The notes under the pieces are model-generated. The model was given only the letters and a program-made list of their open reading frames with translations, did no database searches and was not told the DNA's origin. From a virus, in the IMG/VR virus record IMGVR_UViG_3300006040_000001, positions 36,695 to 100,694 of that record: a DNA stretch of 64,000 bases; one strand, written 5' to 3'. The first letter of the stretch is position 1, and each line of letters opens with the position of its first letter. Below are positions 31,374 to 52,436 of the stretch, piece after piece. The position numbers were made by a program, and so were the translations under genes.

Positions 31374-32909
31374 TTAGACACTACTCCACCAGGCGCCTTC
31401 GCCGCCATCTGATACGGTCTTACCGCCGACGCTGCGGCGGGAGCAATCTACACCTAATATGTCGTCGGGGATGGTGCCTACTTGCTGAAATTTGTAGACG
31501 AAATATAAGTCGCGCTCGGGTGTTATCGTGGCTTTGCGATGCTTGCCTCTCTGGAATGTTAAATAAGACTCACCGTTGACTTTGACAATATGCTGATATA
31601 TTTCTAAGTCAACTTCCTGATCGATCGTTTTGCATGAGTCCCAATATCCGCGGTTAGCGATTTCTTGTACGAAGTTATCCACACCCACACGCGTTAACTG
31701 TTTAGCTTCGGTGGATAATTGATGTGGTGTAATACAGATGATGCCTTTCTTGCTAGTAAAGTTACGCACACGACGGTATAGGTCGCGGAACTCCACGCCA
31801 GCGGGACCTGTAGCACAGCCGCGTTTCGACATCATGGGTAGATAATCGATGTTGAGCATAATAACTTCATAGCCTTGTGCTTCAAATCGTTCTACACGGT
31901 CGAACAAATCACGGAACGTAAACTCCGATGGATCAATGTGACACATGTTGATGTGGAACCCAGTAGCCTGTAACCGATCCGTTACATAACGCGTGGCTTC
32001 GTCGATGTCAATCATTTTAGGATCGGTATACACCCCTGTTTCATTTTCTACTAAGGAACGATACAGATACGTCATATCGAGTTCAATAGGGTTTTCAAAA
32101 CTAATACGCATTAATAGCGGTTTCTTAGTAGGGTCGCGTAGCATAGGAATGTTATATAAAGCAGCGCTCTTAAACATCTCTAAAGTTGTGCCAGATTTAA
32201 AGTTGTGCTGTAATGCACCCACTACAATCATCTCACCTCGTCTAGCGCCCATACTGGCACCAAACATTCGATTTAGACCCTGCCATCCAAACTGGATAAT
32301 CCCGCGTGTATCTAGTTCGTTAACACCACGCTGGAATACGTTCTTAACAGCTGCTGTGTCACCGAACATCACATCGCTTACTACGCTAGGGTGGGCTGCT
32401 TCAATACAGTCATTATTAGAGTAGGGTGTAAGAGCTTCAGTTAGCTCTTTAATATAGTGTCGCCAGTCAATAGTGCTAGACTGGAACCACGTCTTAGTAT
32501 AGGCCTCCTTGAGCAGCTCCTTGACTTTGGATTGATTTATGTATTGTCTTAGCACATGCTTATAGCTAATAACAATTTCTTTCAGTGCCTCTGGCTCAAA
32601 ATCAGGCGCTATACCCGATACCAGTGAGTCATATAGACCGTTATCATTACCGCAGTTTACACGCAGTTGTTGTAGCAACTCATGTTTATCGTAATGATGG
32701 TCCTGTGGGTTAGCGTTCATCCACCGCGCTGTTTCACGCAGACTAATTAAAGGATCTTTACCGAACTCATTAGTAGCGTAAGATTCTGGCAATTTAATAT
32801 GAGTCAAGATTGATGTGATTAGCTCTGTAGAGCCATTACTACGTTCGTCTAACTTGGATTCCAAGTAGATCAGGGTAATAAGCTTGACCAGTAGTAGTTT
32901 CGTATCCAT
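31374..32909 (-). CDS. dnaB: DnaB-like replicative helicase, phiKZ gp118-like
   Basis: GWQGLNRM, variant Walker A GALQHNFKSG, ISFEN, IDYL, TPHQLS, QEVDLE, RGKHR; divergent from the capsid operon. Confidence 0.8.
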   Translation of the reverse strand: MDTKLLLVKLITLIYLESKLDERSNGSTELITSILTHIKLPESYATNEFGKDPLISLRETARWMNANPQDHHYDKHELLQQLRVNCGNDNGLYDSLVSGIAPDFEPEALKEIVISYKHVLRQYINQSKVKELLKEAYTKTWFQSSTIDWRHYIKELTEALTPYSNNDCIEAAHPSVVSDVMFGDTAAVKNVFQRGVNELDTRGIIQFGWQGLNRMFGASMGARRGEMIVVGALQHNFKSGTTLEMFKSAALYNIPMLRDPTKKPLLMRISFENPIELDMTYLYRSLVENETGVYTDPKMIDIDEATRYVTDRLQATGFHINMCHIDPSEFTFRDLFDRVERFEAQGYEVIMLNIDYLPMMSKRGCATGPAGVEFRDLYRRVRNFTSKKGIICITPHQLSTEAKQLTRVGVDNFVQEIANRGYWDSCKTIDQEVDLEIYQHIVKVNGESYLTFQRGKHRKATITPERDLYFVYKFQQVGTIPDDILGVDCSRRSVGGKTVSDGGEGAWWSSV

Positions 32910-32940
32910 AGTGCATTCCACCTTTATAAAGAGCATTTTT

Positions 32941-37372: not shown

Positions 37373-37414
37373 TTACTAGACGGCAGACATCGGTCTGCCG
37401 TCTAGTAATATGCC
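37373..37414 (+). terminator. 16-bp stem hairpin plus TATGCC
   Basis: TTACTAGACGGCAGAC-ATCG-GTCTGCCGTCTAGTAA-TATGCC. Confidence 0.7.
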
Positions 37415-37444: not shown

Positions 37445-37475
37445 CTAAAGGATCCCTACCCATAAGGAATTGTGC

Positions 37476-38654
37476 ATGACTATAGAGTACACTATCCCAA
37501 CCACTGTAGCAGCGCCCATGGTAGCGGCGCATCACAGTAATTTAGACTCCAGTGAGGAGCGCGAGCGTGGTGCAGGCTATGCCCGTACCATTACATACAC
37601 TAACGGCACACCGTACATAATCAACGTCACGGAACGAGAGGGCATATCTGTTAGTATACCTAGTAACAACGGCGGTTTTAATGCAGGCGAGTTTTGTGTC
37701 TACGTAAGGTATCGAATCGGACCTAATGTAAATATTAATGCGACATCCTTATTAAATGCTGCTGAGTCAGATCTCACAGATGATCTACGTGCTATAAACG
37801 TCGCTATTCAACGTGAACGCGCTGTAGACCGACGTCAGCTAGCCGAAGGCGCTATTACATTCCAATTGATCTACCGCATACCAGCGGATATTATCAGTTT
37901 GTATAATGGCGCTATACACTTAAGTCAATTAGGCATAACACTGTCTACCCATCGTAAAGATGCGATCGTGGTGAATCCAGATTCTGAACACGGCGTATTA
38001 CTCATGGCTGGTAGCAGTGAAGATATAGCTGGACTACGAGTACGTATAGAGATCAATGACCCTGAACGTACCTATGGTAGCCGGTACGTAAACTTACATA
38101 ACCGTATTTATCGAATAGATACTACGATAGATAAAACCAAACGTGAAGGAGTATACCTGTATTCCACTAATCCGGAATTTAGGCCAGTAGGTAAAGTAAA
38201 AGATCGTTACGAGTTTTATGAAGCCGATGATGCATTAGGGCTATATAAAACGTATGACGACGCCAGATGTCACGGCGACGTAGTAGCAGAACGTAATCGT
38301 GAATATGAACGAACCAAACACGATGTCCGTATGGAATCGCTAGAGCAGGATCGAATCAAACAAGACTCTGCTGCTCAAGCATTATACATGAAATCATTTT
38401 TTGAGAAATTAGCGGCTTTAGAAGATTCGGCTAAGAAGAGCCATGAAACTTTTATAGAAATGCAAGTACGTCTAGAAAAAGAGCGTGCGGATGAACGCCG
38501 GCGACATCAAGAAGATGAAGCTAATAAACGTAAGGAAGAACAAGAACACCGATCAAACGATAGAAAAGAACGTCTAGAGTTTATTAAATGGTTTACAGCC
38601 ACTATAGTTGCAGTTACCGCATTAGCGACTGCATACTCCAAGATGTCCAATTAA
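37476..38654 (+). CDS. Coiled-coil protein with C-terminal transmembrane segment, phiKZ gp122-like
   Basis: AAGGA RBS; charged coiled coil then FIKWFTATIVAVTALATAY; upstream of the gp123-like gene. Confidence 0.55.
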   Translation: MTIEYTIPTTVAAPMVAAHHSNLDSSEERERGAGYARTITYTNGTPYIINVTEREGISVSIPSNNGGFNAGEFCVYVRYRIGPNVNINATSLLNAAESDLTDDLRAINVAIQRERAVDRRQLAEGAITFQLIYRIPADIISLYNGAIHLSQLGITLSTHRKDAIVVNPDSEHGVLLMAGSSEDIAGLRVRIEINDPERTYGSRYVNLHNRIYRIDTTIDKTKREGVYLYSTNPEFRPVGKVKDRYEFYEADDALGLYKTYDDARCHGDVVAERNREYERTKHDVRMESLEQDRIKQDSAAQALYMKSFFEKLAALEDSAKKSHETFIEMQVRLEKERADERRRHQEDEANKRKEEQEHRSNDRKERLEFIKWFTATIVAVTALATAYSKMSN

Positions 38655-38664
38655 CGAGGTTATT

Positions 38665-40272
38665 ATGGATACCGCTCTCTTCGCCGAAATACAGCGTTCC
38701 CTGCCGAAGTTTAATAGACGCATTACACGAGGGTTTGCTACCGAAGAGCTAAAAGGTGTGGAAGATTATATACAGCGTTTGATACGCTGTGCCGAGTTGA
38801 GATTCCCGCCAGGGTTAACGTATATGCGCTGTGAGCGCTGTACGCCTACTGAAGAATACAACTTCGCTACTGCTAAGAAAACTACTAAGCAGTATTACGA
38901 ATACAGTCAAACCGATGTGTATTTGATGAAGTACTACTTTGAATACAAAGGCGTGCCATTACGGCCGCGTTATCTCTATTTACCGTTTGTAGATGACGGC
39001 GGCATTATTCGTATCATGGGTAACCGGTTTAGCATTAGTCCCGTACTAGCTGATATCGCCGTGAGCGCGGGTGATGATAACGTATTCATACCGCTGAACC
39101 TAGACAAACTAACCTTTAGACGGGTACTACACCACTATGTCGTCGATGGCAAACGTGTAGGCGTAAGCGTGGTGCATAGTGAGGTATATCATCGATCCAA
39201 GAAATCTCGTGTAGGGCAGAAACGTACCATTAATGCCCTCTCCACGCTAGCGCATTATCAATTCGCTAAGTGGGGGTTACAGCAAACCTTTGCCCGATAT
39301 TTAAACACGGAGATAATGGTAGGTAACCCTGAGTACATCAACCACATTAATTTCCCTATAGACGAATGGGTTGTGTGTGAATCCACGCAGGTGAAACCCT
39401 ACGGTAACAAAAATAAATTTTACGTAGGTACTGATATCCGCATCGCTATTAGGCGTGAGCACTATAGCGCTAGCGCTTCGGGATTAATCGCAGGCTTTTT
39501 CTATATCGCCGATAGATTCCCTGAGCAAATGAATCCAGAATACGTAAACAACGAACGGTTCTGGCGTGAGCTATTAGGGCATGTTATTTTCGCTAGCGAA
39601 GAATCGGTAGGTAAGCTACTTAACAAAGTAGACGGACACATCGAATCACTCGATGGATACATCGATGCGATGTCGCAGGAATGGCTAAAAGAAGATAATG
39701 TTTTCGTGAACGATCTATACGAGTTATTCCAACACGTCATAGACACGTATAGTGAACGCACAGCCAACGCCGCTGCGACTAGCTCTACAATGTACGGTAA
39801 ACGTCTCATGGTGTTACGATACGTAATGATCGATGTGATCAAAGCGATCTTTAACATGATGTTCGGATTACAGACAGCCGCTAAGAAAGGGCTTACTGAG
39901 AACGACATCAACAAAATCATGGATACGCATTTTAAACCGCATATCATCCACCGTATTAACCACCGCCACGGCGAAGTATCTAGCGTATCTAATCCATCGC
40001 CCTGCATGAGTTTCAAAGTCACAAGTAACATCGTACTGCAAACGAATATTACTAGCGGTGCTAGCGCCGCTAAAACCAATACGATTACCTCAGCTAATAT
40101 ACTGCACTCTAGTATTGCTGAGATTGGTCAATTTAACAACCTACCCAAAGGAGAACCCACCGGCCGTAAACGGTTTAACCCTTACGGCGAAATTGATGAG
40201 CGTAACATTACTGTACAGCGTGAGCGTACGGCTGCTCTATTAAACCGCGTACAAGCGGACATTGAACGTTAA
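38665..40272 (+). CDS. Non-virion RNA polymerase beta-subunit N-terminal fragment, phiKZ gp123-like
   Basis: YLYLPFV...G..FSISPVLAD, MYGKRLMVLRYV, LHSSIAEIG...LPKGEPTGR..FNPY; size and synteny. Confidence 0.75.
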   Translation: MDTALFAEIQRSLPKFNRRITRGFATEELKGVEDYIQRLIRCAELRFPPGLTYMRCERCTPTEEYNFATAKKTTKQYYEYSQTDVYLMKYYFEYKGVPLRPRYLYLPFVDDGGIIRIMGNRFSISPVLADIAVSAGDDNVFIPLNLDKLTFRRVLHHYVVDGKRVGVSVVHSEVYHRSKKSRVGQKRTINALSTLAHYQFAKWGLQQTFARYLNTEIMVGNPEYINHINFPIDEWVVCESTQVKPYGNKNKFYVGTDIRIAIRREHYSASASGLIAGFFYIADRFPEQMNPEYVNNERFWRELLGHVIFASEESVGKLLNKVDGHIESLDGYIDAMSQEWLKEDNVFVNDLYELFQHVIDTYSERTANAAATSSTMYGKRLMVLRYVMIDVIKAIFNMMFGLQTAAKKGLTENDINKIMDTHFKPHIIHRINHRHGEVSSVSNPSPCMSFKVTSNIVLQTNITSGASAAKTNTITSANILHSSIAEIGQFNNLPKGEPTGRKRFNPYGEIDERNITVQRERTAALLNRVQADIER

Positions 40273-40292
40273 CCTAACCGGACACTAAAAAC

Positions 40293-41150
40293 ATGGCAAA
40301 CTACATCCTGAACAGATATGAGACGTTAGACGCGATGGCGGCTCAATACTTATTAGCATTGGCTCTGCGCTGGAAAAAGCTAGAGGTCTGCATATTAACA
40401 CCGGAACTGCTACGCAGCGGATGTGAGATTGCATCTGCTGGTAACACAATCACTTATTTTACCCGTGACCCGATAGATCCAGCCAAACTACCAGCACATG
40501 AAGTTGCTATTAGCGTGCCGGAGAACGAGCATTTTCTCTGGGAGGTACTAGAGTATCCCGCCGTACAGGAATACATGGAGTGCGTCGAAATCCCAATCGC
40601 GTTACGGTACGTTATTGATTACGTATCAGGCAATCGCTATGCCGCTGATATTGATGCAATTGCGGCGTATATGACCAGCGGTCTACCCATGGAAAAACGC
40701 TCATGGGATTTGCTAGTGCAGTGCAATGATTTTGGTTTACGTCAGCACATTCCTACCGGCCTTAATCTGCTGCGATTAGAAAGACTGATTGCTAAACACT
40801 ATATGCCTACCATACGTACAGGTATTACGATAGATACCCCTGGGTTGCGTGTGGGTAGCGATACCGTAGAGATCTACTTAGTAGAAGCAGACCCTATTAC
40901 ACGTGAATATATCGTAAACCATATCAATGATACACAGCCAGATGCGGTAGCCGGTTATGTGGTTTACGAATCACAGACTGTTGCGGGTAAGCCTACACTC
41001 CCTGAAGGTGTTGAAGTGCCTTTAGAACCTTCAGTGCTGGCTATCTATTACTTTAAGTTCAGCACGCAAGCTGAAACGATCGCATTCGCTGCGCGTAATG
41101 GCCTACGTATGAACTTCGCAGGTTATATCACGTACACTAAGCTCAACTAA
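40293..41150 (+). CDS. Degenerate DHH/DHHA1-like protein (paralog 1)
   Basis: Distant similarity to 42107 (LWE...PIALRYVIDY...WDLL...G..L); no DHH motif. Confidence 0.45.
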   Translation: MANYILNRYETLDAMAAQYLLALALRWKKLEVCILTPELLRSGCEIASAGNTITYFTRDPIDPAKLPAHEVAISVPENEHFLWEVLEYPAVQEYMECVEIPIALRYVIDYVSGNRYAADIDAIAAYMTSGLPMEKRSWDLLVQCNDFGLRQHIPTGLNLLRLERLIAKHYMPTIRTGITIDTPGLRVGSDTVEIYLVEADPITREYIVNHINDTQPDAVAGYVVYESQTVAGKPTLPEGVEVPLEPSVLAIYYFKFSTQAETIAFAARNGLRMNFAGYITYTKLN

Positions 41151-41209
41151 TACAACAACACTAGAGTGTGCTAACCGCACACTCTACTAAACTACGAGGT
41201 TTAAAAAGA

Positions 41210-42097
41210 ATGTTACATCCCGTTGTTTTTCATAATGGCCGATCCGTACAGTTTATTGCTGCCTGGTTACTGGCCAATGTGTTACCTGAGTCCCCAGTGG
41301 AACTAGTAGAGTTAAAAGAACTAGTAAATAGCCCGGATGGCTATTTAGATGGCCGCACCGTGTATTTCGTAGGCGACGCACCTACGCCACAGCAACTAAC
41401 AAAATACTGTCAACTCACCGAACACACAGTACTAATAGGCTACGATACATACGGCGCACGGGGTAAGATTCATCCGATCCTAAAGCGTGTAACCCATGGT
41501 AGTGTGTACCCAGCCACTAACCGTGACATACTCAAAGGTGTGCTTAGCTACCTGCGTTCGACTAATCAAATCACAGACCAATGGCCAATCCCGGCGTTAG
41601 TCGCTGAACTAATACGCGACGATAACGAACTACGTGCCAGTTATATCTATCGCACTCTAGCCTGTGAGAAATTAACAGTAGATGCAGTAGCTGAGTTGAT
41701 GTCTTATACGGATCAGAATATCGAGTTGTTAATAGCCCCCGGTAAGGCACTTATGGCGCGCCACCGTGATTTCATCAGACGTACGTTAGAGAACGATGTC
41801 AGACCTCTAGATCTAGAGTCCATGGTGGTGTTAGGGTGTGGTACATCGCATATCTACGCGAGTTGTTTGGCGGAAGAGTTGGCACTGCGTAACATCGTAG
41901 GCGTCGCTTATTACGATACAGCGCAGTACCGTCATTATGAGATTCGTTTACAGGCAGTAGATGAGCATACTAATCTAGCTACGCATACAGCCACGATGCA
42001 GTCTTTAATTGCACTTAAGCTAAAGCATTCGGGTGTTGGTACTAACCACACGATGCGATTCCGCGTACCACGTACGCATAAACTAGCAACTATCTGA
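41210..42097 (+). CDS. Degenerate DHH/DHHA1-like protein (paralog 2)
   Basis: PVVFHNG..FIAAW, GRTVYFVG, GKALMARH, YAS.LAEELA, VAYYDT..RHYEIR; no DHH motif. Confidence 0.6.
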   Translation: MLHPVVFHNGRSVQFIAAWLLANVLPESPVELVELKELVNSPDGYLDGRTVYFVGDAPTPQQLTKYCQLTEHTVLIGYDTYGARGKIHPILKRVTHGSVYPATNRDILKGVLSYLRSTNQITDQWPIPALVAELIRDDNELRASYIYRTLACEKLTVDAVAELMSYTDQNIELLIAPGKALMARHRDFIRRTLENDVRPLDLESMVVLGCGTSHIYASCLAEELALRNIVGVAYYDTAQYRHYEIRLQAVDEHTNLATHTATMQSLIALKLKHSGVGTNHTMRFRVPRTHKLATI

Positions 42098-42106
42098 GTA
42101 ACTACC

Positions 42107-42943
42107 ATGTCTGAGAAAATGTTAATCTTATATCGCGGTAACCGTTTAGACCATATGTACGGTGCCGCTATTGTAGCTTCATGGACTAATAATAACCATG
42201 AGATAGTCCGTCTAGAGCACGGTGAACCATTACCTGACGTGACAGGTCGCGACGTGTTCCTAATCAACGTCGTGGTAGACCCTGACGATATCACACGCAT
42301 GGTTGCTACTGCCCGTGTTGTACTGTTCGCCGGTAACTCCGTGCGCGCCTTAGCTAATTTAGCTGAGCACGATACTGAAAACAAAGTACACGTACAGACG
42401 GATCCATCACACTCAACCGCGGTTATGCTCTGGACTAAACTCTACGGGCACAACTACCCTACGGTACTGACTTACTTAGATGAATATTACTTCAATCGCA
42501 GTGAGTTACCTAACAGCACGCACATGCTAGCAGCGCTACGCCACGAACCATGCACGGTCGAGAACGTAGAGCGGTTGATGGCGTTAGATGAGGACGGCTT
42601 AGATTCGTTGCGATACTTAGGGCGAATTGCTTATGAAGCGCACGTACGGGCATGTAGCTCTATTACGCATACCAACCTACGTTACGCTACCGTAGAAGGT
42701 CAGTTAGTGCCGGTGTGTAACGCTCCAGCACACTGTGCTACTGAGATATCACGTCTTATTTTAGGTAACTACCCGTTCTCTGTGGTGTATTACGATACGG
42801 TACGGGGACGTCGTTATTTATTACGTAAGGGTCAACGTAGTGACGTGGACATCTGCGCTGTGGCAGCTCGCCACGGAGGTAAAGGTAATCTTAACACGGC
42901 TACTTTTACCACTGAATTAAATAGCCCATTTGGCATCAACTAA
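42107..42943 (+). CDS. Degenerate DHH/DHHA1 phosphoesterase-like protein (paralog 3)
   Basis: LILYRGNRLDHMYGAA, PDVTGRDVFLI, VPVCNAP, PFSVVYYDT..GRRYLLR, DVDICAVAARHGGKGNLNTATF; collinear with phage DHH-DHHA1 enzymes. Confidence 0.75.
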   Translation: MSEKMLILYRGNRLDHMYGAAIVASWTNNNHEIVRLEHGEPLPDVTGRDVFLINVVVDPDDITRMVATARVVLFAGNSVRALANLAEHDTENKVHVQTDPSHSTAVMLWTKLYGHNYPTVLTYLDEYYFNRSELPNSTHMLAALRHEPCTVENVERLMALDEDGLDSLRYLGRIAYEAHVRACSSITHTNLRYATVEGQLVPVCNAPAHCATEISRLILGNYPFSVVYYDTVRGRRYLLRKGQRSDVDICAVAARHGGKGNLNTATFTTELNSPFGIN

Positions 42944-42957
42944 AAGCGTTACAGATA

Positions 42958-42965
42958 TATATTAC
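42958..42965 (+). promoter_or_regulatory. Early promoter
   Basis: Exact phiKZ early consensus TATATTAC, in the context AGATATATATTAC. Confidence 0.65.
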
Positions 42966-43005
42966 TAACCAGTAACACTGTGCTATACTCATTACAGGAG
43001 ACGCT

Positions 43006-44850
43006 ATGAATAGCCCTTACGATCCGATCAGTAACCAACCGCAGTTTCGCGGCGCACCGGGTAATATTCCGTTTACGCCAAATATCCAGTGTTCGCCGAA
43101 CATGGTCAGCTATGTTGCACCGGTCATGGGTAATTTAATTAGCATCATCCAGCGCGAAGGTGATGCTAACTTACTCAGACAGACGTTGTTCTACGAATGC
43201 CGGGGCTTAGATACATACCAGATGTACAACACGCCGTTTTTCTTAGACTTACTCGGTAAGACCGTGGATATCTTAGAAATGCGTTTGGCTTATCAACCAA
43301 ACGTAGACGTCGGACGTGCATTAGTGGATACCTGCACTGAAATGTGTGCATACCATGCCGCGATGATGTTAACGCATAACACGCCGCATGGTTATTTAAC
43401 GCAAGAACAGATTAATAACTGTCAGCAAGCCGTAAACGAATATCGCCAACTAGAGCAACAAGCAGCGATTTACTTTACACCACAACAACAACAATATCCG
43501 CAGCAGCAACAGCAATCGCTATATCGCACCAGCGCGCCTATGGGCAACGGTAGTGGTGGGTATGTACCGCCGTATAACCCAGGCGGGCAACAACAGCCTG
43601 TACGGCAGTCTGGGCTAGGTTCAGGCGGGCCAGTATCGCCATTAGCCCAAGTGCAAGCTATTCCAGTGGTAGCGCCTGCGCCAGCTGCTCGTCAGCAGAC
43701 CGTAGTAGTGCCATTAGCTACCGCTCCATCAGTAGTAGTGCCTATGGCTGAACGACCTGTAGTGGTACAGGCTTTACGTGAATCCGGCGGTCTACATGAC
43801 TACATCGGGTACGCACTACCTGCTGCGTTTAGCGCAGACTATCAAATCGCCGTTTATCGCCGTTCGGGTACTACGTATCGGATGCAGGTGATTAACATAG
43901 AGGACGTGACCATGGACTATAAACTCCACTGTACCGAACATTTGTTGAAGAACCGCACTACTCATTACGAAACTGCTGACTTTACAGCTATCCGGCAGGA
44001 AGCAGCCTACCGCGCATCTATCGAAGCAATGTTAGCCGAGATGTCCGCTAAGTCTGTGGTAGGTGGTATCGACAGTACGCATCAATATGAAATCGTACGT
44101 TTCTACGATCCCGTATTGATTGAACGCGGTAAGCAACCGCACGATATGGTGCGTGATGAGTTAGCTGTCCGCGATGTTAATATTGATTTTGCAGCACAGG
44201 CCGTAGTATTTACCGTAGTAAGTTTTAACAGCGACTTTTATACTGATGAGGCAGCCAATGCATTATTAAGTATCAACAAAGCCGTAGACTTTATAGACTT
44301 AAAACGATTAGTGATGCAAGCCAAACCGCTAATGAATCCGCATGCATTCGGATTATTGAATCGTGAGCTAACCAATCACGTAAACGAGTTACTGGCGTGT
44401 TCTATGAACGACCCGGCTACGATCAACTCATACGTGGATGATATTGTCGATTTACACGATTACCTCACTACAGATTATCCAGAGGTGATGGATAAACTGA
44501 ATGCGGTGGGGCTAACGCGTATATTAGATACTACAGCTAATGTAGAGTCTGGTGTGCTTTATAGCGAGTTCTACGAAGGCGGTAATACCAATCCCCGCTT
44601 TAGTGAGTTCGAAACCTGGATCTTTATTCCGTTACCGGCAGCTGCTATCTCGCTATCGGGCTACAACGAAACAGTCGAAGCCAATCGCTCTAATACCCCA
44701 GAGCTATTTGATCTGCTGGAGAACACTCGTGCGTTATCCTCGCCGAATATTCGCCGCACTCGACTCATTACGCTGGATGGCGAAACGCTATGGGTATTCC
44801 GTAGCACTGACTCACAGCGTTATGTAGTATCGACGCATAAAGACTTTTAA
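43006..44850 (+). CDS. Hypothetical protein with central Q/P/G-rich disordered linker
   Basis: AGGAG RBS; 614 aa; PQQQQYPQQQQQ...PGGQQQP. Confidence 0.7.
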   Translation: MNSPYDPISNQPQFRGAPGNIPFTPNIQCSPNMVSYVAPVMGNLISIIQREGDANLLRQTLFYECRGLDTYQMYNTPFFLDLLGKTVDILEMRLAYQPNVDVGRALVDTCTEMCAYHAAMMLTHNTPHGYLTQEQINNCQQAVNEYRQLEQQAAIYFTPQQQQYPQQQQQSLYRTSAPMGNGSGGYVPPYNPGGQQQPVRQSGLGSGGPVSPLAQVQAIPVVAPAPAARQQTVVVPLATAPSVVVPMAERPVVVQALRESGGLHDYIGYALPAAFSADYQIAVYRRSGTTYRMQVINIEDVTMDYKLHCTEHLLKNRTTHYETADFTAIRQEAAYRASIEAMLAEMSAKSVVGGIDSTHQYEIVRFYDPVLIERGKQPHDMVRDELAVRDVNIDFAAQAVVFTVVSFNSDFYTDEAANALLSINKAVDFIDLKRLVMQAKPLMNPHAFGLLNRELTNHVNELLACSMNDPATINSYVDDIVDLHDYLTTDYPEVMDKLNAVGLTRILDTTANVESGVLYSEFYEGGNTNPRFSEFETWIFIPLPAAAISLSGYNETVEANRSNTPELFDLLENTRALSSPNIRRTRLITLDGETLWVFRSTDSQRYVVSTHKDF

Positions 44851-44858
44851 TAGTTCGG

Positions 44859-44887
44859 TAGTAACGGAGCGTAACGCTCCGTTACTA
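44859..44887. repeat. Palindrome with 1-nt spacer
   Basis: TAGTAACGGAGCGT-A-ACGCTCCGTTACTA. Confidence 0.8.
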
Positions 44888-44900
44888 GTAGGGTATTAAG

Positions 44901-45065
44901 ATGGAAACCGTAAACAGATTTAAAAACTCAAAGGCCGTAAAGGCGCTAGAGCGACTAGCCCGTGAAGAATCGTTACACCAACCCACCGGGTATCCAGTCG
45001 CTAAAGCCATGGCTGATTTACTTAAAAGACAGATGAGTAAATCTACTCAAGCACCAACTACTTAA
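44901..45065 (+). CDS. Small basic hypothetical protein (54 aa, not in the ORF track)
   Basis: METVNRFKNSKAVKALERLAREE...; fills the intergenic gap. Confidence 0.45.
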   Translation: METVNRFKNSKAVKALERLAREESLHQPTGYPVAKAMADLLKRQMSKSTQAPTT

Positions 45066-45096
45066 ACACTCATTAACTTAATAGGACACTCCCCCT

Positions 45097-45996
45097 ATGC
45101 GTAACATCGTTTTAAAATCTAATGGCGCTAGCGTATTACTAGCCACAGCAATCATCTTACGCGCAGCCGATCTGTATAGTGACCTACCTGCTGAGGTCAT
45201 GACTCATAGCGAAATCTGTAACTTACATGCGCCTGCGCGGGTTTACTGTTTTGGAACCACCCAACCAGCTGTACGTGCACTGCTATCAGCTAAACACACC
45301 GTAGTGTGCTTTAATGTAGAAGATACCTTCGTCACCACCGATATACTTAATCATCCTAATTGCCGTCGCGTTACGCGCTCTGATACAGAGCTACTACCCA
45401 CCTGCGTGTGGCAGTATATGTTCAAAGAACCACTACCCTGGGTGGTTAAGTTACTGCAATCGGTAGATAAAGATGATCGTGAGTCAGATGCCTCTCGTGC
45501 CTTTACAGCAATCATTGCCGATCTGGAATGTAATGCTTCGGTACGTTACGCCGATACGCTATTGGATCTTGATGCTAGTGCGTTAGATAAATATGTGTTT
45601 GCTGGTCAACTAGTGAAATACAAATCTAATAAACAGTTACGGACGTACGCGCGCTTTACAGAGCGTACGATGCAGTTGGGGTCATTAACGTTTGGTATTG
45701 TACAACGCGGTTTATACCCAGACCGCACGCTAGTACGCGTATATGCTCAGCACGGGCTTACTAAACCCAACCTAGCTGGTACGATCGTACGCACCAATCG
45801 GCCAACAGATGATCCTGACGTTAACCCAGCACATCATGCACGGTTTACGATTACGCTAAAGCCACAGCCGAACGGCGATGATCTAAGTGTGATCCATGCA
45901 GCGTGTTTAGCGATTAATCCAAAGACCGTTATCGACCCGACTTCAGATCAGATCATTTTACGCGTACCACCTACACATCCATTATTTAATGCATAA
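45097..45996 (+). CDS. Degenerate DHH/DHHA1-like protein (paralog 4)
   Basis: IVLKSNG..LLATA, RVYCFG, VWQYMFKEPLPWVVKLL, LLDLDASALDKY..AG; no DHH motif. Confidence 0.5.
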   Translation: MRNIVLKSNGASVLLATAIILRAADLYSDLPAEVMTHSEICNLHAPARVYCFGTTQPAVRALLSAKHTVVCFNVEDTFVTTDILNHPNCRRVTRSDTELLPTCVWQYMFKEPLPWVVKLLQSVDKDDRESDASRAFTAIIADLECNASVRYADTLLDLDASALDKYVFAGQLVKYKSNKQLRTYARFTERTMQLGSLTFGIVQRGLYPDRTLVRVYAQHGLTKPNLAGTIVRTNRPTDDPDVNPAHHARFTITLKPQPNGDDLSVIHAACLAINPKTVIDPTSDQIILRVPPTHPLFNA

Positions 45997-46012
45997 CTCT
46001 TAAGGAACTATT

Positions 46013-46207
46013 ATGGCCGTACTAAAGGATCTATACCGTCGCGGTATTTTAGTCAAACGCAGTCCATGTAGTAATGCGTCGCTGTATCCGTTTAAGATAA
46101 CCTACACTGAACGGGTTGGCACACCTTATGCTAAACTGATGGATGATTGGGTATCGCTATCTGTGATAAAACCCTATAACAACGATTTCACACTACAGGA
46201 ATTATAA
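46013..46207 (+). CDS. Small hypothetical protein
   Basis: AAGGA RBS. Confidence 0.45.
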   Translation: MAVLKDLYRRGILVKRSPCSNASLYPFKITYTERVGTPYAKLMDDWVSLSVIKPYNNDFTLQEL

Positions 46208-46209
46208 CT

Positions 46210-46482
46210 ATGCCATCTATTGATACTAATACACTCGCCGCGACTATCCCGACATCGCTATCAGGTGCTGCTATCGATGTGCTATATAAATTAGCATTAC
46301 ACGGCGGTCAGAATGACGGTGATCTACCGTCTAAATCAGGCATGACTGAACTAATCCAGCGCGGTCTCGCTTACAAAGACTATGCTGAAAGTATTACAGG
46401 GCATAGTAACTTCATTACTGAAGCCGGTGCCGCGTATTATAAACATCTGATCAATCAGAAGATTGCTGCTCAACTGAGTTAA
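46210..46482 (+). CDS. Small winged-helix-like phage protein
   Basis: LSGAAIDVLYKL...DGDLPSKSG..ELIQRGLA...ITEAG pattern. Confidence 0.5.
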   Translation: MPSIDTNTLAATIPTSLSGAAIDVLYKLALHGGQNDGDLPSKSGMTELIQRGLAYKDYAESITGHSNFITEAGAAYYKHLINQKIAAQLS

Positions 46483-46489
46483 TACCCAC

Positions 46490-46512
46490 TGCTAGGCGTA
46501 TTACGCCTAGCA
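46490..46512. repeat. Palindrome with 1-nt spacer
   Basis: TGCTAGGCGTA-T-TACGCCTAGCA. Confidence 0.75.
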
Positions 46513-46530
46513 TCATTTAAGGATACCTAC

Positions 46531-47220
46531 ATGAGTTTAATGTCAGATCGTCAAATAGCCCGCGCATGTAATTTTAACTATACTCAAGATGGCTTTAAGC
46601 CGTCGTCAGAACTAGTCCCTAAGGGCGCGCTAGTTAAACAATCCGCACCTATGATTACGCCATTCGTACCTATGCAGGTGCGTGCGATAACCACACACCG
46701 TGTAACAGAACCGAGCTCGATACGTAAGATCGTTAGCTTCGGGTTAAGTTCCTACGGATACGATGTTAGACTAGGCGATAAGTTTAAAATGTTTGCCTTA
46801 GTGAACCAAGACGGCTATGGTCTACAGCACGTACCGCTCGACCCGCTCGATACACAAGAACGTGACTATATCGATGTTAAACCAGATGCCGAAGGCGCCG
46901 TTACAATACCTCCAGGCGGTATATTATTGGGACATACCTTGGAATATTTTAATATGCCGAATGATGTACTAGCCGTGTGTATGGGTAAGTCCACGTATGC
47001 CCGTTTGGGAATAAACGTACTGGTTACCCCGCTCGAACCGGGATGGTGTGGTAGTTTGGTGGTCGAAATGCATAATGGAAACACACGCCCTGTTAAAGTA
47101 TACGCCGGTATGGGTATTGCACAGTTGGTATTTATGCGTGGCGAACCTCCAACGGTTACCTACGCTGACCGTGACGGAAAATATCAGGCGCAAACGGGGG
47201 TTACCTTAGCCAAATGTTAA
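46531..47220 (+). CDS. dcd: dCTP deaminase
   Basis: SFGLSSYGYDVRL, GKSTYARLG, TPLEPGW.G, GIAQL, YADRDGKYQ.Q.GVT. Confidence 0.93.
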   Translation: MSLMSDRQIARACNFNYTQDGFKPSSELVPKGALVKQSAPMITPFVPMQVRAITTHRVTEPSSIRKIVSFGLSSYGYDVRLGDKFKMFALVNQDGYGLQHVPLDPLDTQERDYIDVKPDAEGAVTIPPGGILLGHTLEYFNMPNDVLAVCMGKSTYARLGINVLVTPLEPGWCGSLVVEMHNGNTRPVKVYAGMGIAQLVFMRGEPPTVTYADRDGKYQAQTGVTLAKC

Positions 47221-47232
47221 TAAGGTGGAAAT

Positions 47233-47961
47233 ATGAAATGGGAATTATACGTACCGTTTTCAAAAGGCGGTAGATTTATAAATCCATTCAAAGATGTGGC
47301 GGGGTGTTATATATTAACGCACCTCCCCACTGGTCGTTTTTACGTAGGCAGTACTGACAATTTACCTAGGCGTGTATCGCAGCATATTACCACGCTTAAA
47401 TATAGAACACATACTAATCGTAAGCTATTGGAAGTATATGTTTTAGGAGATAAACTTCAAATTGAGGTATCTCGGTGCGTGGGCATAAGTGAAGCAGCTA
47501 AACTAGAGCAATGTGTTGTAGACAAACACGTAGATGATCCATTACTTTGTAATATCGCTATTAAGGACGTTACTAAATCTAGTTACGGATTGCCGGTTAC
47601 ACAGGAGAGGCGAGCACACCTACGGAAGTTAAATCTAGGCAATGTAGTTACTTCTGAGACTCGTGAGAAATTACGTTTAGCCAATATTGGTAAAACACTT
47701 ACACCGGAGCATAGGGTAAAAATAGGAGATAGTAATAAGCTACGGTACACTACGCCGGACGGTAAACGCACTATAGCAGTTGCGCAGCGCATAGCTACAG
47801 AGGCGACTTTAAAGCCAATTCAGATAGGCGAGGATATCTATCTAAGTGGCTGTGACGCCGCCAGAGCCCTTAACGTATCGTCTACAACGATATATTATCG
47901 TCTGAACAGGCCAAAACAATACCCGGATTATAGACGCATAATCCAAAATACCGAGGTGTAA
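47233..47961 (+). CDS. Free-standing GIY-YIG homing endonuclease with NUMOD3 repeats
   Basis: GCYILTH...FYVGST..L.RR..H; SETREKLRLANIGKTLTPEHRVKIG; C-terminal HTH. Confidence 0.85.
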   Translation: MKWELYVPFSKGGRFINPFKDVAGCYILTHLPTGRFYVGSTDNLPRRVSQHITTLKYRTHTNRKLLEVYVLGDKLQIEVSRCVGISEAAKLEQCVVDKHVDDPLLCNIAIKDVTKSSYGLPVTQERRAHLRKLNLGNVVTSETREKLRLANIGKTLTPEHRVKIGDSNKLRYTTPDGKRTIAVAQRIATEATLKPIQIGEDIYLSGCDAARALNVSSTTIYYRLNRPKQYPDYRRIIQNTEV

Positions 47962-47964
47962 GTC

Positions 47965-48162
47965 ATGATGCGGTCATATATCGAAGCGCAGTATCGCGCG
48001 TGGATGTTTTTAATACGGTGGGTAATACTACCCACCGTATGGATTTTAATATTAACGCTAGTCTGGATTATCTGGGTAACCTATAATTCAGGCACTGATA
48101 CTTTTACCGATGTGTTAGGTTATTATATAACACGACTATTATCATTTATGTTAGAGCATTAG
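47965..48162 (+). CDS. Small membrane protein
   Basis: Hydrophobic WVILPTVWILILTLVWIIWV. Confidence 0.5.
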   Translation: MMRSYIEAQYRAWMFLIRWVILPTVWILILTLVWIIWVTYNSGTDTFTDVLGYYITRLLSFMLEH

Positions 48163-48176
48163 CAAAGGAGCTACAC

Positions 48177-48509
48177 ATGGACATAGTAACCGTTGTATTA
48201 CTATTGGCGTTGGCTGTAGTGGCGTATCGCCAACACATCGTAGCGCTATTGGACGAGTTTGAGTTAATCAACGGACCAGTCATCTACTTAAATACGGAGG
48301 CTATAGCTACTTATAGACATCGTGAGTTAAGAGACGTATTGATTCGCGTAGAATTAGGCAAAGGGTCTAAGCTGTCCGTGGTTTATTTTAAGGCACCGCT
48401 TTACTTTAAAGAAGTAACGCCTAATAAACAACAACGCTTATTAAAGCGTACAGCCCGTATTTCTGGGATGCGTGTAAAGACCATTAACCAAATTGACTAC
48501 GTTAGATAG
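48177..48509 (+). CDS. Small protein with N-terminal membrane anchor
   Basis: AAGGAG RBS; IVTVVLLLALAVVAY. Confidence 0.6.
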   Translation: MDIVTVVLLLALAVVAYRQHIVALLDEFELINGPVIYLNTEAIATYRHRELRDVLIRVELGKGSKLSVVYFKAPLYFKEVTPNKQQRLLKRTARISGMRVKTINQIDYVR

Positions 48510-48519
48510 TCCACCGTAC

Positions 48520-48551
48520 GCCAGTGCTCCTAGGAGCACTGGCACTATGCC
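48520..48551 (+). terminator. Perfect 24-bp palindrome plus TATGCC
   Basis: GCCAGTGCTCCT|AGGAGCACTGGC-AC-TATGCC. Confidence 0.65.
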
Positions 48552-48578
48552 CTCATTATAAACCCACTGGAATCAATC

Positions 48579-49304
48579 ATGTCTAAGCCTTACACTAAAG
48601 CACAACTGTTCTTGTTACAATCCGCAGATTGGCCACGTATCGTGTTACAGCAAACCAATATACTGGCCACTCATATGCAAGCCTCGGTAGCCTACCCAGG
48701 CGCTCTACGGTCTGCGCCTACGCCCTATATCTCCGTGCTATACGATACAGGGTTAGCCATATTAGCAAACACCGGTATCCGTAGTTATGCCCACGGACTA
48801 TACCAAGGTCAAGAACTGCATTGGGATACGGCCGAACAGCTACATCTTTGGCTATATCCGCATTTAGCGCATTTACGCCCGCCACTATCGGCCGAATCGC
48901 ATGACTGTTTCTATAAGCCATTAACTCTGCTGATGTATCCAGGTATGTTGTCGTATGAAGCAGTGATTGCTGACCTACCGTATCCGTTAGGTAATGTGCG
49001 CGTATCTAATATCGCTACGTTGCGGAAACGATACCAGTCAGCTTATCTACAGCTATGCTATTTTACTAAGCGCGGCATTATTAATACCGCTGATATGCTG
49101 ATAGACCATGAAGATGTATATGCGTGTATGTACGCGTTAACATCTACTTCGGTGCGTGGCAGCTATATCGTCTATAAGGACAATCGTTTCGTTAACGACT
49201 GCCTAAACGACATCTATGGTATCGATGGTAAAGAACTTAACGTAGGGGTACGCCGCCGCACCCTAGCGGAGCTGAAAGCATATCTAGGGCTACCTAATAT
49301 CTGA
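48579..49304 (+). CDS. Hypothetical protein
   Basis: 241-aa ORF with GGA RBS. Confidence 0.55.
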   Translation: MSKPYTKAQLFLLQSADWPRIVLQQTNILATHMQASVAYPGALRSAPTPYISVLYDTGLAILANTGIRSYAHGLYQGQELHWDTAEQLHLWLYPHLAHLRPPLSAESHDCFYKPLTLLMYPGMLSYEAVIADLPYPLGNVRVSNIATLRKRYQSAYLQLCYFTKRGIINTADMLIDHEDVYACMYALTSTSVRGSYIVYKDNRFVNDCLNDIYGIDGKELNVGVRRRTLAELKAYLGLPNI

Positions 49305-49307
49305 GAC

Positions 49308-49398
49308 TCCAATTAATCTCAGATACATATTACCTAAGTGAGAGAAGAACTAAGCCCATCTTCCCTCACCTCACTTTAACTGGGCTGGAGTTACAATC
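49308..49398 (+). promoter_or_regulatory. Early promoter plus pseudoknotted 5' leader, copy 2
   Basis: CATATTAC at 49326-49333; loop AGCCCA pairs with TGGGCT at 49381-49386; GGAG SD at 49387. Confidence 0.75.
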
Positions 49399-49668
49399 AT
49401 GTCAAATTCAATCATTGTTATGGTCTATCAAGATATTAGCGTATTAGAAGAAGCGTTAAAGCAGTTTAAAGTAGTAACCACGCGCAGCGGCTATACATGG
49501 CTCACTGTGCCAGTGGGTGAACGCACACGCGCTGAGGTTGAGCAAATTGCTGCTAAGCATTGTTTGCCTACTAGCAGTCATCAAGCTGCGTTCGTGCTTA
49601 ACGGCAAAGAAGAGCCATGGACGTTTACAACGCCTACGGCTGCTATCTTAGAGCTAGCTCAGGCATAA
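49399..49668 (+). CDS. Small hypothetical early protein
   Basis: GGAG RBS, 89 aa. Confidence 0.65.
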   Translation: MSNSIIVMVYQDISVLEEALKQFKVVTTRSGYTWLTVPVGERTRAEVEQIAAKHCLPTSSHQAAFVLNGKEEPWTFTTPTAAILELAQA

Positions 49669-49707
49669 TGGCATAGTACTCCACTCCCGTTAGGGAGTGG
49701 GGTACTA
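49662..49707. terminator. Hairpin between convergent genes with tandem TATGCC on the minus strand
   Basis: TAGTACTCCACTCCC-GTTA-GGGAGTGGGGTACTA at 49674-49707; GGCATA at 49662 and 49670. Confidence 0.65.
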
Positions 49708-49712
49708 ACCTA

Positions 49713-52436
49713 TTACTGTTCTTTTTTGGTATCGTCCTTAGCGTCCTTATCCTCAGGTTCTTCCTTAGCGGGCTCTTCCTTAGATTTATCCTCCGGCTCC
49801 TCTTTAGCTGGCTTTTCGTCCTTAGGTGCTTCCTCAGCCTCCGGCTCCACAACTACGGGTTCCTCCTCAGTTATATCATCCTCCCCACCACCAGTATCAC
49901 CAAAGTCGAAATCATCACTTTCACCACCACCCGTACCATCACCACCCCCACCGTCATCGGGTGGTGTTTCAACAGGCGGTGCCTCTTCAGTAACGCCTGT
50001 AGCTTCCTTAACTTTATTTAACGCAGCATCGCGACGTACTACTGCCGGTAATGCGTGTTTCATAAAGTCTACTAAAGCTTTACCGATGTTGTCCATATAG
50101 GCTTCGTGGTTCTTCAGCAGATCAAACGTAGGTTTGCCATCTTTGTCTTGCTCTAGGATCTCAAACACTTCTGGCAACATATCGTTGTTCTGCATCCAGC
50201 GCCGTTGGTAATGTGCTTTAATAATAGCAATCGTCATATCCACACTAGAGCTTAGTTCACCAAACACACTACTGTCGAATAACTCACTGCTAACGAATGC
50301 AGGTAACACGGCATCCAATGCTTCGCTATAGGCATCATAGGCAGTTTTCTGCATTTCGATGCGACTTAAGTCAGGCTCAGGTAAATTAGTTTCAACTGTC
50401 CTTAAGAAATACAACACGATAGCATCCACGCCTAATTTGCTATCCTTAGGCAGTTGCATACTCGCTTTGTTAGCTTCTACAGTAGCGCGGAGTCTATCCA
50501 TTAATACGGCTGAGTTCTGCGTGAATTTGTGTATAAAATCAGACAGGTGTTTGGTAAACATTTTCTGATACACTAAAGCACGCTTAGCTAACAATATATT
50601 CGAGTTAATGACGGACTGAGCGAAGTCAACGTTCATTGATAGATCTACAGTCTCGGGAGCAATACCAATAGCCATTAAATGTCGTTTCTTTAAGGTCTCG
50701 TCCAGCTCAGTATCAATCACTGCACGGTTAGACTGTCTGTCCTCTACCGATAGTTTGGTTTCAGGGTAGTTAGGATTACCCTGGGTCGTAACCCCGATAC
50801 CGGCGTTCTGGATATAGTTAACGATATCCAGCGGATTAGACGCACCAATAGGATAAGCTGACTGACGTGCCTTAGCAAACTCATGTACTAATACCTCGAC
50901 TGTACGCGATGGATCTGGATCTTCTGGATCTAGGTCAATCGTTAACTCCACGTGGTTAGTCGAGTTCTTAATGGCTGCCATGGTATTAGCGAACAACATC
51001 ATTGCACGAATAGAGCCTAAGATCTTAGTCGTTTCTAAAAGCGACTTACCTACGCCGTAATGGTTATAATCAAATGCCATATAGGTCATTAACTGTGTAG
51101 GGATAAACAGTAACTGAGTTTGCATCTTAGCGCAAGCACGAGCAAACATGATCCGGTAAATCTCAGTAGGTTTAGATACCTCTACGTTCTCGCCATATAG
51201 ACCATTCACTAACCGCGATCTTAACTCACGCTCCATGACCTCAGCGTACATTACCATGGTCTCGTTAATCATTAATTCCATGTTATCGGCACGACCTTCA
51301 GAAGCTCGACGAGTCTGAGCTAATAACTGCGTGGACATATCCTTTAACATGTCAGTGTTCTGTGAGAAATCAGCAAAATAATCGGCACTGATATTCGCAC
51401 GGATCGGATTACCGTGTCGATCAACCGCTACGTAATAACCGATATGGTGTCTAGGTTCTGACGGTACGTGTACCGGGATAATCGACTCAGCAGGAAACAA
51501 CAACACCAACGGATGACCTACCGTGGGTTTTTCGAGTTCTGCTAATGTACGCATCGCTACTACAGGCGTATAGCCAAATGCTTTATACTGATAGAGACTA
51601 GCTGTAGAGCCATCAGTCATCATTTGGTCACCGCGTGCTTCTAACCCCATCTCACGGCGGCTATAGGCTGCCTGTACCCGATCATAAACCATTTTGTCAT
51701 GTGCTTTTGGGAACTTGAGCAGATTGATGTTATCAGTGATGATGACAGTTTCCGAACCTACTCTAGTGACCGGATCATAGGTAGCTTGATGCTCTCCGAT
51801 AGACTCCATACCAAAGCCATAGAACGTGTCAGAGGATGCTTGATTAGCCAAAATACCCATACTGGTTAATTTGTTATCTTTAATATCCAGTTTAAATGAT
51901 TCCGTAGTCATACGTGACTGACCATTAATAGCCTCGTCAATACTGGACTCCGGTAATACCGCTAGCGGGTAGCTGCCTTTCTTAAATAAAATATCTTCTA
52001 GCATTTCTGGTAGAAATGAATTTATTTTATAGGTGTCTATAAAGTAGGCGCGAATCGTTTCTAACAAATGTGCCTTGGCATCGCCTAGATCATCTGCTGT
52101 ACTAGTAAAGGCTAGTTCACATGACATCAAGTTATTGGGCGATAGGATACTACTAATTAAAACCTGCATGGCTAATTCCATGTCAGGTAATAACTGTAAC
52201 ATGTTTTCATTATCAATAATGTTAGCAGCTGTTTTATTGACTACGTGCTGCGCTAGCATCGAGGGTGGTTGCATTTTACCATCACGTGCGCGCGACGTCG
52301 GGATAACCGATGACACTAACTTAGAATTAATGGATTCGTTCACTGCGTTATGTTTAAACGCAGGCAACCGGGGATGAGCATTACCGATAGCGGTAGGTAG
52401 CGGCCCCATGGACTGACCAAATGGTTTCTTATTCAA
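49713..52436 (-). CDS. Portal protein, phiKZ gp129-like
   Basis: 907 aa. LQLLPDMELAMQVLISSILSPN, GHPLV..P.ES.IPVHVP, EIYRIMFARA, GVGKSLLE, acidic C-terminal tail. TTG start with AAGGAG RBS. Confidence 0.75.
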   Translation of the reverse strand: MNKKPFGQSMGPLPTAIGNAHPRLPAFKHNAVNESINSKLVSSVIPTSRARDGKMQPPSMLAQHVVNKTAANIIDNENMLQLLPDMELAMQVLISSILSPNNLMSCELAFTSTADDLGDAKAHLLETIRAYFIDTYKINSFLPEMLEDILFKKGSYPLAVLPESSIDEAINGQSRMTTESFKLDIKDNKLTSMGILANQASSDTFYGFGMESIGEHQATYDPVTRVGSETVIITDNINLLKFPKAHDKMVYDRVQAAYSRREMGLEARGDQMMTDGSTASLYQYKAFGYTPVVAMRTLAELEKPTVGHPLVLLFPAESIIPVHVPSEPRHHIGYYVAVDRHGNPIRANISADYFADFSQNTDMLKDMSTQLLAQTRRASEGRADNMELMINETMVMYAEVMERELRSRLVNGLYGENVEVSKPTEIYRIMFARACAKMQTQLLFIPTQLMTYMAFDYNHYGVGKSLLETTKILGSIRAMMLFANTMAAIKNSTNHVELTIDLDPEDPDPSRTVEVLVHEFAKARQSAYPIGASNPLDIVNYIQNAGIGVTTQGNPNYPETKLSVEDRQSNRAVIDTELDETLKKRHLMAIGIAPETVDLSMNVDFAQSVINSNILLAKRALVYQKMFTKHLSDFIHKFTQNSAVLMDRLRATVEANKASMQLPKDSKLGVDAIVLYFLRTVETNLPEPDLSRIEMQKTAYDAYSEALDAVLPAFVSSELFDSSVFGELSSSVDMTIAIIKAHYQRRWMQNNDMLPEVFEILEQDKDGKPTFDLLKNHEAYMDNIGKALVDFMKHALPAVVRRDAALNKVKEATGVTEEAPPVETPPDDGGGGDGTGGGESDDFDFGDTGGGEDDITEEEPVVVEPEAEEAPKDEKPAKEEPEDKSKEEPAKEEPEDKDAKDDTKKEQ

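Follow-up and report, generated by a model that had tools for sequence, protein, structure and literature searches.

A set of four DHH/DHHA1-like proteins lacking the catalytic motifs in an uncultured phiKZ-like jumbo phage

DHH/DHHA1 enzymes break down several bacterial second messengers, some of which are used in immune signalling. Many jumbo phages carry a stand-alone phosphoesterase of this type (NrnB/NrnA/RecJ-like) as a single active copy. The active DHH phosphodiesterases of some jumbo phages have been described as possible counter-signalling enzymes (Iyer et al., PMC7824862). Members of the phage family PHROG 4771, including LucasX LUCX_130, the RTH11 phosphohydrolase, Noxifer_240, CcrColossus gp070 and Vibrio phage H20_0021, are single-copy and keep the His and Asp of motif I, the Asp of motif II, the DHH triad, the D-R-D of motif IV and the GGGGH string. 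Here we describe four genes in one phage, P0001 to P0004, whose products share the length class and, with less certainty for P0001, the two-domain order of these proteins but do not keep this set of residues. The genes lie in a stretch of 64,000 nucleotides (the window; all positions below are counted from its first base), which corresponds to bases 36695-100694 of the 100.7-kb IMG/VR virus record IMGVR_UViG_3300006040_000001. Literature searches found no description of phage DHH proteins that are catalytically dead.

The genomic context of the active phage enzymes varies. The single copies of LucasX, RTH11 and Noxifer adjoin genes for dTMP kinase, thymidylate synthase or dCTP deaminase (in Noxifer the DHH gene is one gene away from the dCTP deaminase), and other active relatives lie in replication or other contexts. 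Active members of the DHH family are encoded in at least 561 IMG/VR stretches. Eighty of these loci (L012-L091) were retrieved; their contigs are mostly <=40 kb, so that jumbo phages are far from being the only common carriers of the family.

Outside phages, the same fold is found in NrnA/NrnB, TM1595, PggH, Rv2837c and the catalytic domain of GdpP, as judged by Foldseek with P0003, and the DHHA1 L-R-S and glycine motif can be aligned with theirs. Identity to these bacterial enzymes, which are nano-RNases or phosphodiesterases for pApA, pGpG or c-di-AMP, is 10-15%. Because the window proteins have no metal site, they cannot be classified as either. Cdc45 is a DHH/DHHA1-fold protein without catalysis that is retained as a non-enzymatic subunit (PMC4359367). 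Unlike Cdc45 and the archaeal RecJ/Cdc45-like proteins, the products of the window genes lack the CID insertion domain and show no sequence affinity to this group beyond the superfamily. The genes also differ from that of Cdc45 in having no linked helicase gene and in their lack of conservation within the phage family. The phage sponges Tad1, Tad2, Acb2 and Acb4 resemble the window proteins in the proposed sequestration without cleavage and in their fast-evolving accessory character, but their folds are unrelated to DHH. Literature searches found no sponge with a DHH fold.

All four open reading frames (ORFs) are intact, encoding 278-299 aa (Table 1), as the initial annotation of the region had reported. 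P0003 and P0002 are clear homologues of PHROG 4771. P0003 matches this family ("DHH phosphoesterase") with an expectation value (E) of 5.7e-26 across its full length. It is collinear throughout with six phage DHH proteins, from Vibrio H20, CcrColossus, Tiera, LucasX, Noxifer and one metagenomic source, and is 21-26% identical to the phage enzymes of the family. An AlphaFold2 model built on a 41-row alignment of IMG/VR relatives has a mean predicted local distance difference test score (pLDDT) of 92 and a predicted template modelling score (pTM) of 0.84, and consists of an N-terminal DHH domain, a long linker helix and a C-terminal DHHA1 domain. Foldseek searches with this model return TM1595, PggH, NrnA, DhhP, GdpP, Rv2837c and RecJ (E ~1e-10, probability 1.0), and viral DHH models in BFVD with template modelling (TM) scores up to 0.86, including those of the jumbo phages PaBG, PhiEaH1 and RP12. 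A word-indexed homologue search with P0003 returned P0006 alone (23% identical), and there was no match by phmmer against PDB sequences or in an IMG/VR scan. P0003 had been proposed from its sequence to be collinear with phage DHH-DHHA1 enzymes and to have altered catalytic motifs (YRGNRLDH, Asp to Asn, AGN and GGKGN); the alignments confirm both points.

In P0003 the His10 and Cys13 of motif I are both replaced by Arg while Asp15 is kept, and the motif II Asp54 is Asn. The DHH triad has neither Asp nor His and reads A-G-N or G-N-S depending on the alignment. The D-R-D of motif IV has become E-Y-Y, with a Glu at the Asp position, and GGGGH has become G-G-K-G-N, with Asn for His. Asp15 is the only canonical metal ligand left, in addition to the motif IV Glu.

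P0002 matches PHROG 4771 with an E of 1.7e-7 and is aligned by hhalign to the family profile over residues 5-294 (probability 96.9, E 1.5e-10). Its best database matches are the RTH11 and LucasX enzymes; an IMG/VR scan with P0002 and its orthologue as a pair gave no match. The orthologue (positions 2098-2982 of a sister contig, L011) begins at the equivalent ATG, and for this reason the start of P0002 is placed at ATG 41210 and not at GTG 41168. The latter sits within an intergenic hairpin and is the spurious start of the ORF at 41168. P0002 and its orthologue both keep the motif I His (His8), with Arg in place of Cys13 and Val in place of Asp15. Their motif II Asp54 is Gly, with an Asp one residue later, and their triad reads Y-D-T. 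The D-R-D of motif IV is D-D-N in P0002 and D-N-N in the orthologue, and the GGGH His is Thr and Asn, respectively.

These residues bear on whether the proteins might still be enzymes that use substitute ligands, such as the shifted Asp of P0002 and Glu126 of P0003, or a metal-independent chemistry. P0002 does keep His8 and the first motif IV Asp, and both orthologues have a conserved Asp at +1 of motif II and, in the triad, another where the first His would be. We nevertheless regard continued catalysis as improbable, since the His pair of DHH and the GGGH His are absent from all four proteins, P0003 is left with one canonical ligand, and no DHH enzyme is known to work without the triad (see, for example, PMC9779919). 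The loss of catalysis is slightly less certain for P0002 because of the Asp residues one position from two lost ligands.

The alignment of 37 active family members has 80 columns with >=90% conservation; P0003 retains 32 of them and P0002 retains 24. Of the metal ligands, these retained positions include only Asp15 in P0003 and, in P0002, only His8 and the first Asp of motif IV. In the DHHA1 domain, P0003, P0002 and the P0002 orthologue all retain Y228, D230, R235, L/I239, R240, G258, G260 and F267, and P0003 also retains G257. Through the family profile, this stretch can be matched to the L-R-S ... GGGGH region of DhhP and Rv2837c. In NrnA-type enzymes the substrate backbone is contacted by the Arg motif and by the glycines of GGGH (reviewed in PMC9779919). 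The DHH triad and the GGGH His are missing from all four proteins, nearly all of the metal ligands are replaced, and Arg or Lys is found at former metal-site positions. With the catalytic residues lost and the DHHA1 contacts retained, the cleft has lost its catalytic half, and in two of the four proteins it has at least partly kept the half that contacts the substrate.

P0004 is more divergent, and its identity as a DHH/DHHA1 homologue is well supported by profiles and by a structural model. The match to PHROG 4771 is borderline (E 0.004). The family hidden Markov model (HMM) detects P0004 with E 4.9e-6 to 7e-4, and hhalign against the family gives E 0.0006-0.001, with an alignment limited to the linker and the last part of the DHH domain. 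The ESM Atlas holds a model of the exact protein (pLDDT 0.65). Over residues 1-298 this model matches viral DHH, NrnB, RecJ and archaeal Cdc45/RecJ clusters with TM scores of 0.54-0.58, and an Atlas feature search likewise returns DHH clusters (0.90). There is no DHH triad anywhere in the sequence, and the HMM alignment spans motif IV only, where the second Asp is kept. A word-indexed search and tblastn against phages found no homologue of P0004.

P0001 is the weakest member of the set and is probably a DHH/DHHA1 derivative. It has no PHROG or Pfam match; indeed, none of the four proteins matches the Pfam families DHH (PF01368) or DHHA1 (PF02272) at E up to 1. A word-indexed search found a 67% identical orthologue, P0007, which was also the only hit when 1.84 billion representatives were searched exhaustively by HMMER with the P0001 pair, and tblastn against phages gave no match. 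AlphaFold2 with two sequences gave an unusable model (pLDDT 35), and the ESM Atlas model is poor. The case for homology comes from profile comparison. When the two-sequence P0001 profile was aligned by hhalign to a seven-sequence DHH profile, the score was 38.8, compared with a mean of 15.4 (standard deviation 2.8, maximum 26.4) for 206 column shuffles and 13.5 for the reversed sequence. The score is 34.1 even with P0003 removed from the DHH profile. The match is collinear, with residues 99-180 placed on residues 116-196 of P0003, and the significant profile evidence is confined to residues 81-180. The seven-sequence HMM was also run against all six-frame ORFs of >=120 aa from the window and five related loci. 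Outside the training sequences it ranked P0002, the P0002 orthologue, the P0001 orthologue (E 1.3e-5), P0004 and P0001 (E 0.0096), and noise began at E 1.1. A narrower profile of 37 active IMG/VR proteins detects P0001 less well (E 0.037). In addition, the low-confidence model has its helices and strands in an order parallel to that of the confident P0003 model, but lacks one helix-strand unit that follows the strand of motif III. By eye, motif I has Arg for His and retains the Asp as in P0003, and a conserved G-L-R-x-N-x-A-G-aromatic string stands where the family reads G-G-H-x-N-A-A-G-F. The sequence has no DHH triad, and its HMM alignment spans motif IV only, with the first Asp kept.

The initial annotation called the four proteins paralogs with one common layout. 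The lack of DHH holds for all of them and the layout holds over the full length of P0002, but the homology of P0001 is probable only. The word paralogs applies loosely, as the four are no closer to each other than to active family members, and direct profile comparisons between them are weak (E 0.06 to 0.8). In a maximum-likelihood tree, P0003 clusters with the P0002 pair (support 98/94) on branches of 4.8 and about 10 substitutions per site, and long-branch attraction could explain this grouping. An origin by local duplication was also considered and is not established by a tree with branches of such length.

Evidence on selection comes from the sister contig L011 (Ga0209599_10008577, 3255 bp), which carries the end of an RNA polymerase subunit gene followed by orthologues of P0001, P0002 and P0003 (hereafter the trio) in the same order. 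Identities to the window are 93% for the polymerase subunit, 67% for P0001, 57% for P0002 and 60% for the first 83 residues of P0003. The partial P0003 orthologue has the same dead motifs I to III. Nei-Gojobori proportions of non-synonymous (pN) and synonymous (pS) differences are 0.044 and 0.677 for the polymerase subunit, 0.202 and 0.743 for P0001, 0.270 and 0.729 for P0002, and 0.283 and 0.765 for the P0003 N-terminus; because synonymous sites are saturated, any ratio of the corresponding rates (dN/dS) has only the character of an upper bound. Non-synonymous change in the trio is about one third of synonymous change. On these figures the trio is under purifying selection, although its rate of change is five to eight times that of the polymerase subunit. 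Conservation varies along the proteins: between the two phages, identity is 85-100% at both ends of P0002 and in residues 120-180 of P0001, but 25% in a C-terminal loop region.

This comparison speaks directly to the possibility that the genes are functionless remnants, that is, duplicated enzyme genes on their way to loss. The extreme divergence would suit such an origin, as would the lack of database relatives for P0001 and P0004 beyond the one P0001 orthologue. Decay is hard to reconcile with the survival of intact 278-299-aa ORFs in two phages that have diverged to saturation at synonymous sites, with pN at roughly one third of pS, or with long blocks that are 85-100% identical, and we consider it very improbable. 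The intact frames, the shared dead motifs and a pN far below pS instead argue for retained, fast-evolving pseudoenzymes. The retention under selection that had been proposed from the sequence is thus borne out for the trio (pN 0.20-0.28 against pS 0.73-0.77, with dead motifs conserved in L011), and the comparison with orthologues favours purifying over neutral evolution.

By its gene content the source is an uncultured phiKZ-like (Chimalliviridae-type) jumbo phage. Besides a gp123-type RNA polymerase beta/beta' subunit, the window encodes major and internal head proteins, a DnaB-like helicase, and virion structural proteins with matches to PHROG 3004 and PHROG 3222. The phage is new: an INPHARED megablast of the region found no nucleotide match, and the identity of the RNA polymerase subunit to its counterparts in Klebsiella phage Eowyn and in the Xanthomonas phages RTH11 and LucasX does not exceed 40%. 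A second contig, of 107 kb, also encodes these DHH-like proteins.

Table 1. Positions of the DHH-like genes, their neighbours and other features in the window.
Feature	Coordinates	Strand	Remarks
P0001, 285 aa	40293..41150	+	probable, very degenerate DHH/DHHA1-like protein
P0002, 295 aa	41210..42097	+	DHH/DHHA1 homologue without DHH triad or GGGH His
P0003, 278 aa	42107..42943	+	clear DHH/DHHA1-fold protein (PHROG 4771, alignment, AlphaFold2, Foldseek)
P0004, 299 aa	45097..45996	+	divergent DHH/DHHA1-like protein, no catalytic motifs
gp123-type non-virion RNA polymerase beta/beta' subunit (phiKZ)	38665..40272	+	PHROG 2943, E 1.4e-153; left insertion edge
P0005, 614 aa	43006..44850	+	PHROG 15010, E 4e-8; separates trio from P0004
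Second variable island	44851-49700		holds P0004
dCTP deaminase	46531..47220	+	PHROG 1663, E 2.5e-55; variable island with P0004
HNH homing endonuclease	47233-47961		same variable island
Conserved virion structural gene	49713-52436	-	follows variable island
DnaB-like helicase	31374-32936	opposite to trio	7 kb upstream
Intergenic hairpin	37376-37408		GC-rich, no U-tract
Intergenic hairpin	41162-41186		GC-rich, no U-tract
Intergenic hairpin	44859-44890		GC-rich, no U-tract

The trio follows the gene for a non-virion RNA polymerase (nvRNAP) subunit, which is 40% identical to Eowyn gp145. In Eowyn and the IMG/VR contig L004, a gene for a 717-790-aa protein comes directly after the polymerase subunit gene, and the DHH-like trio is absent. 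P0005, which stands on the other side of the trio, is weakly similar in its C-terminal part to this gene of Eowyn and L004 (BLASTP 1e-5 and 3e-5). The centre of P0005 (about residues 155-260) is a long low-complexity region rich in Gln, Pro, Gly and Val, and P0005 looks like a fast-evolving gene at a conserved position. Given that homology, the comparison of gene orders shows that the trio has been inserted, specifically in this lineage, between two conserved core genes. A second variable island, flanked by the gp146-like gene and the virion structural gene, contains P0004, with the dCTP deaminase gene 0.5 kb downstream of it. The other ORFs of this island include those for 54, 64 and 90 aa (the last matches PHROG 4365) and several orphans.

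The genes from 37470 to 44850 are co-oriented, and the trio is tightly packed (intergenic gaps of 20, 59 and 9 bp). An AT-rich stretch precedes the ORF at 37470. The strong hairpins listed in Table 1 lie between co-oriented genes, and they may be phage-type terminators or elements of RNA processing or stability. Co-transcription of the trio with the nvRNAP subunit gene is plausible from this arrangement. The placement of the four genes in predicted early operons could not be confirmed, as a search for a shared early-promoter motif near genes gave 13 matches against 11 expected, which is not above chance, and a sigma-70 scan gave matches below the shuffle expectation.

The position of the trio raises the question of whether the proteins are scaffolds comparable to Cdc45, in other words structural subunits of a replication, recombination or transcription machine that bind single-stranded DNA, nascent RNA or protein. 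The co-orientation of the trio with the nvRNAP subunit gene and its close packing directly after that gene would suit a subunit of this kind. Active family members are found in replication modules (in Tiera next to DNA polymerase I and primase, in CcrColossus near RNase H), and the structure matches of the P0004 ESM Atlas model include archaeal Cdc45/RecJ-type clusters. However, subunits of a core machine are normally family-wide, and neither Eowyn nor L004 has the trio at this locus. Searches of INPHARED and IMG/VR gave no relative, evolution is far faster than that of the RNA polymerase subunit, and the DnaB-like helicase gene is 7 kb away on the other strand. We rate the probability of a scaffold role as low.

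We prefer a different explanation, to which we give about even credence. The four genes would be non-catalytic descendants of a stand-alone DHH/DHHA1 phosphoesterase that act by binding rather than by hydrolysis, in a role related to conflict. The likeliest ligand would be a short phosphorylated nucleotide or oligonucleotide on the DHHA1 face, because P0003 and P0002 keep two Arg, the Tyr-x-Asp and up to three of the four Gly there. Arg and Lys at the former metal site could provide phosphate contacts that do not depend on metal. The lineage-specific multiplication and fast divergence favour a part in phage-host conflict, in which a nucleotide-type signal would be sequestered or short nucleic acids shielded, and such a part would fit better than housekeeping metabolism. 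The roles suggested in the initial annotation, as sponges for CBASS, Thoeris or type III CRISPR signals, as RNA-end binders or as subunits of a hetero-oligomer, are all candidates, and the present data favour none of them over the others.

A more specific version of this binding role is that the proteins are the first sponges with a DHH/DHHA1 fold. Basic side chains would have replaced the metal site, immune signals would be sequestered uncleaved, and each copy would hold another ligand. Candidate signals would be cyclic di- or oligonucleotides, SAM-AMP-like conjugates and the linear products of these. We consider this narrower proposal unlikely.

The proteins could also work through other DHH proteins. 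NrnA-type DHH/DHHA1 enzymes are dimers, and a dead copy might act as a decoy or dominant-negative partner that heterodimerises or competes with a host DHH protein (RecJ or a defence-linked DHH nuclease) or with the phage's own active DHH enzyme, and thereby tunes or blocks it. P0003 and P0002 retain the core of the DHH domain, four diverged copies could suit different targets, and fast evolution would fit. However, no additional DHH gene, active or dead, was found across the 100.7 kb of the record, which is estimated to be 36% complete. We hold this explanation to be improbable.

Several observations weigh against a binding role derived from a dead enzyme. The retention of binding residues is seen in two of the four proteins only, as P0001 and P0004 are not confidently alignable across the DHHA1 face, and the retained DHHA1 residues could serve folding alone. 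In P0002 a residual metal site is possible, given the conserved Asp adjoining two lost ligand positions and the motif I His. The estimate of selection is coarse because one sister contig was compared and dS is saturated. With about 36% of the genome in the record, an active DHH partner may be encoded elsewhere in it.

The four genes are short, and their products are soluble-looking and should be readily expressed. Four retained but disabled copies in one phage would make a test case for the conversion of a signal-degrading enzyme into a signal-binding protein. Alternatively, they may bear on whether phages have reused the DHH fold as a scaffold, as eukaryotes have with Cdc45.

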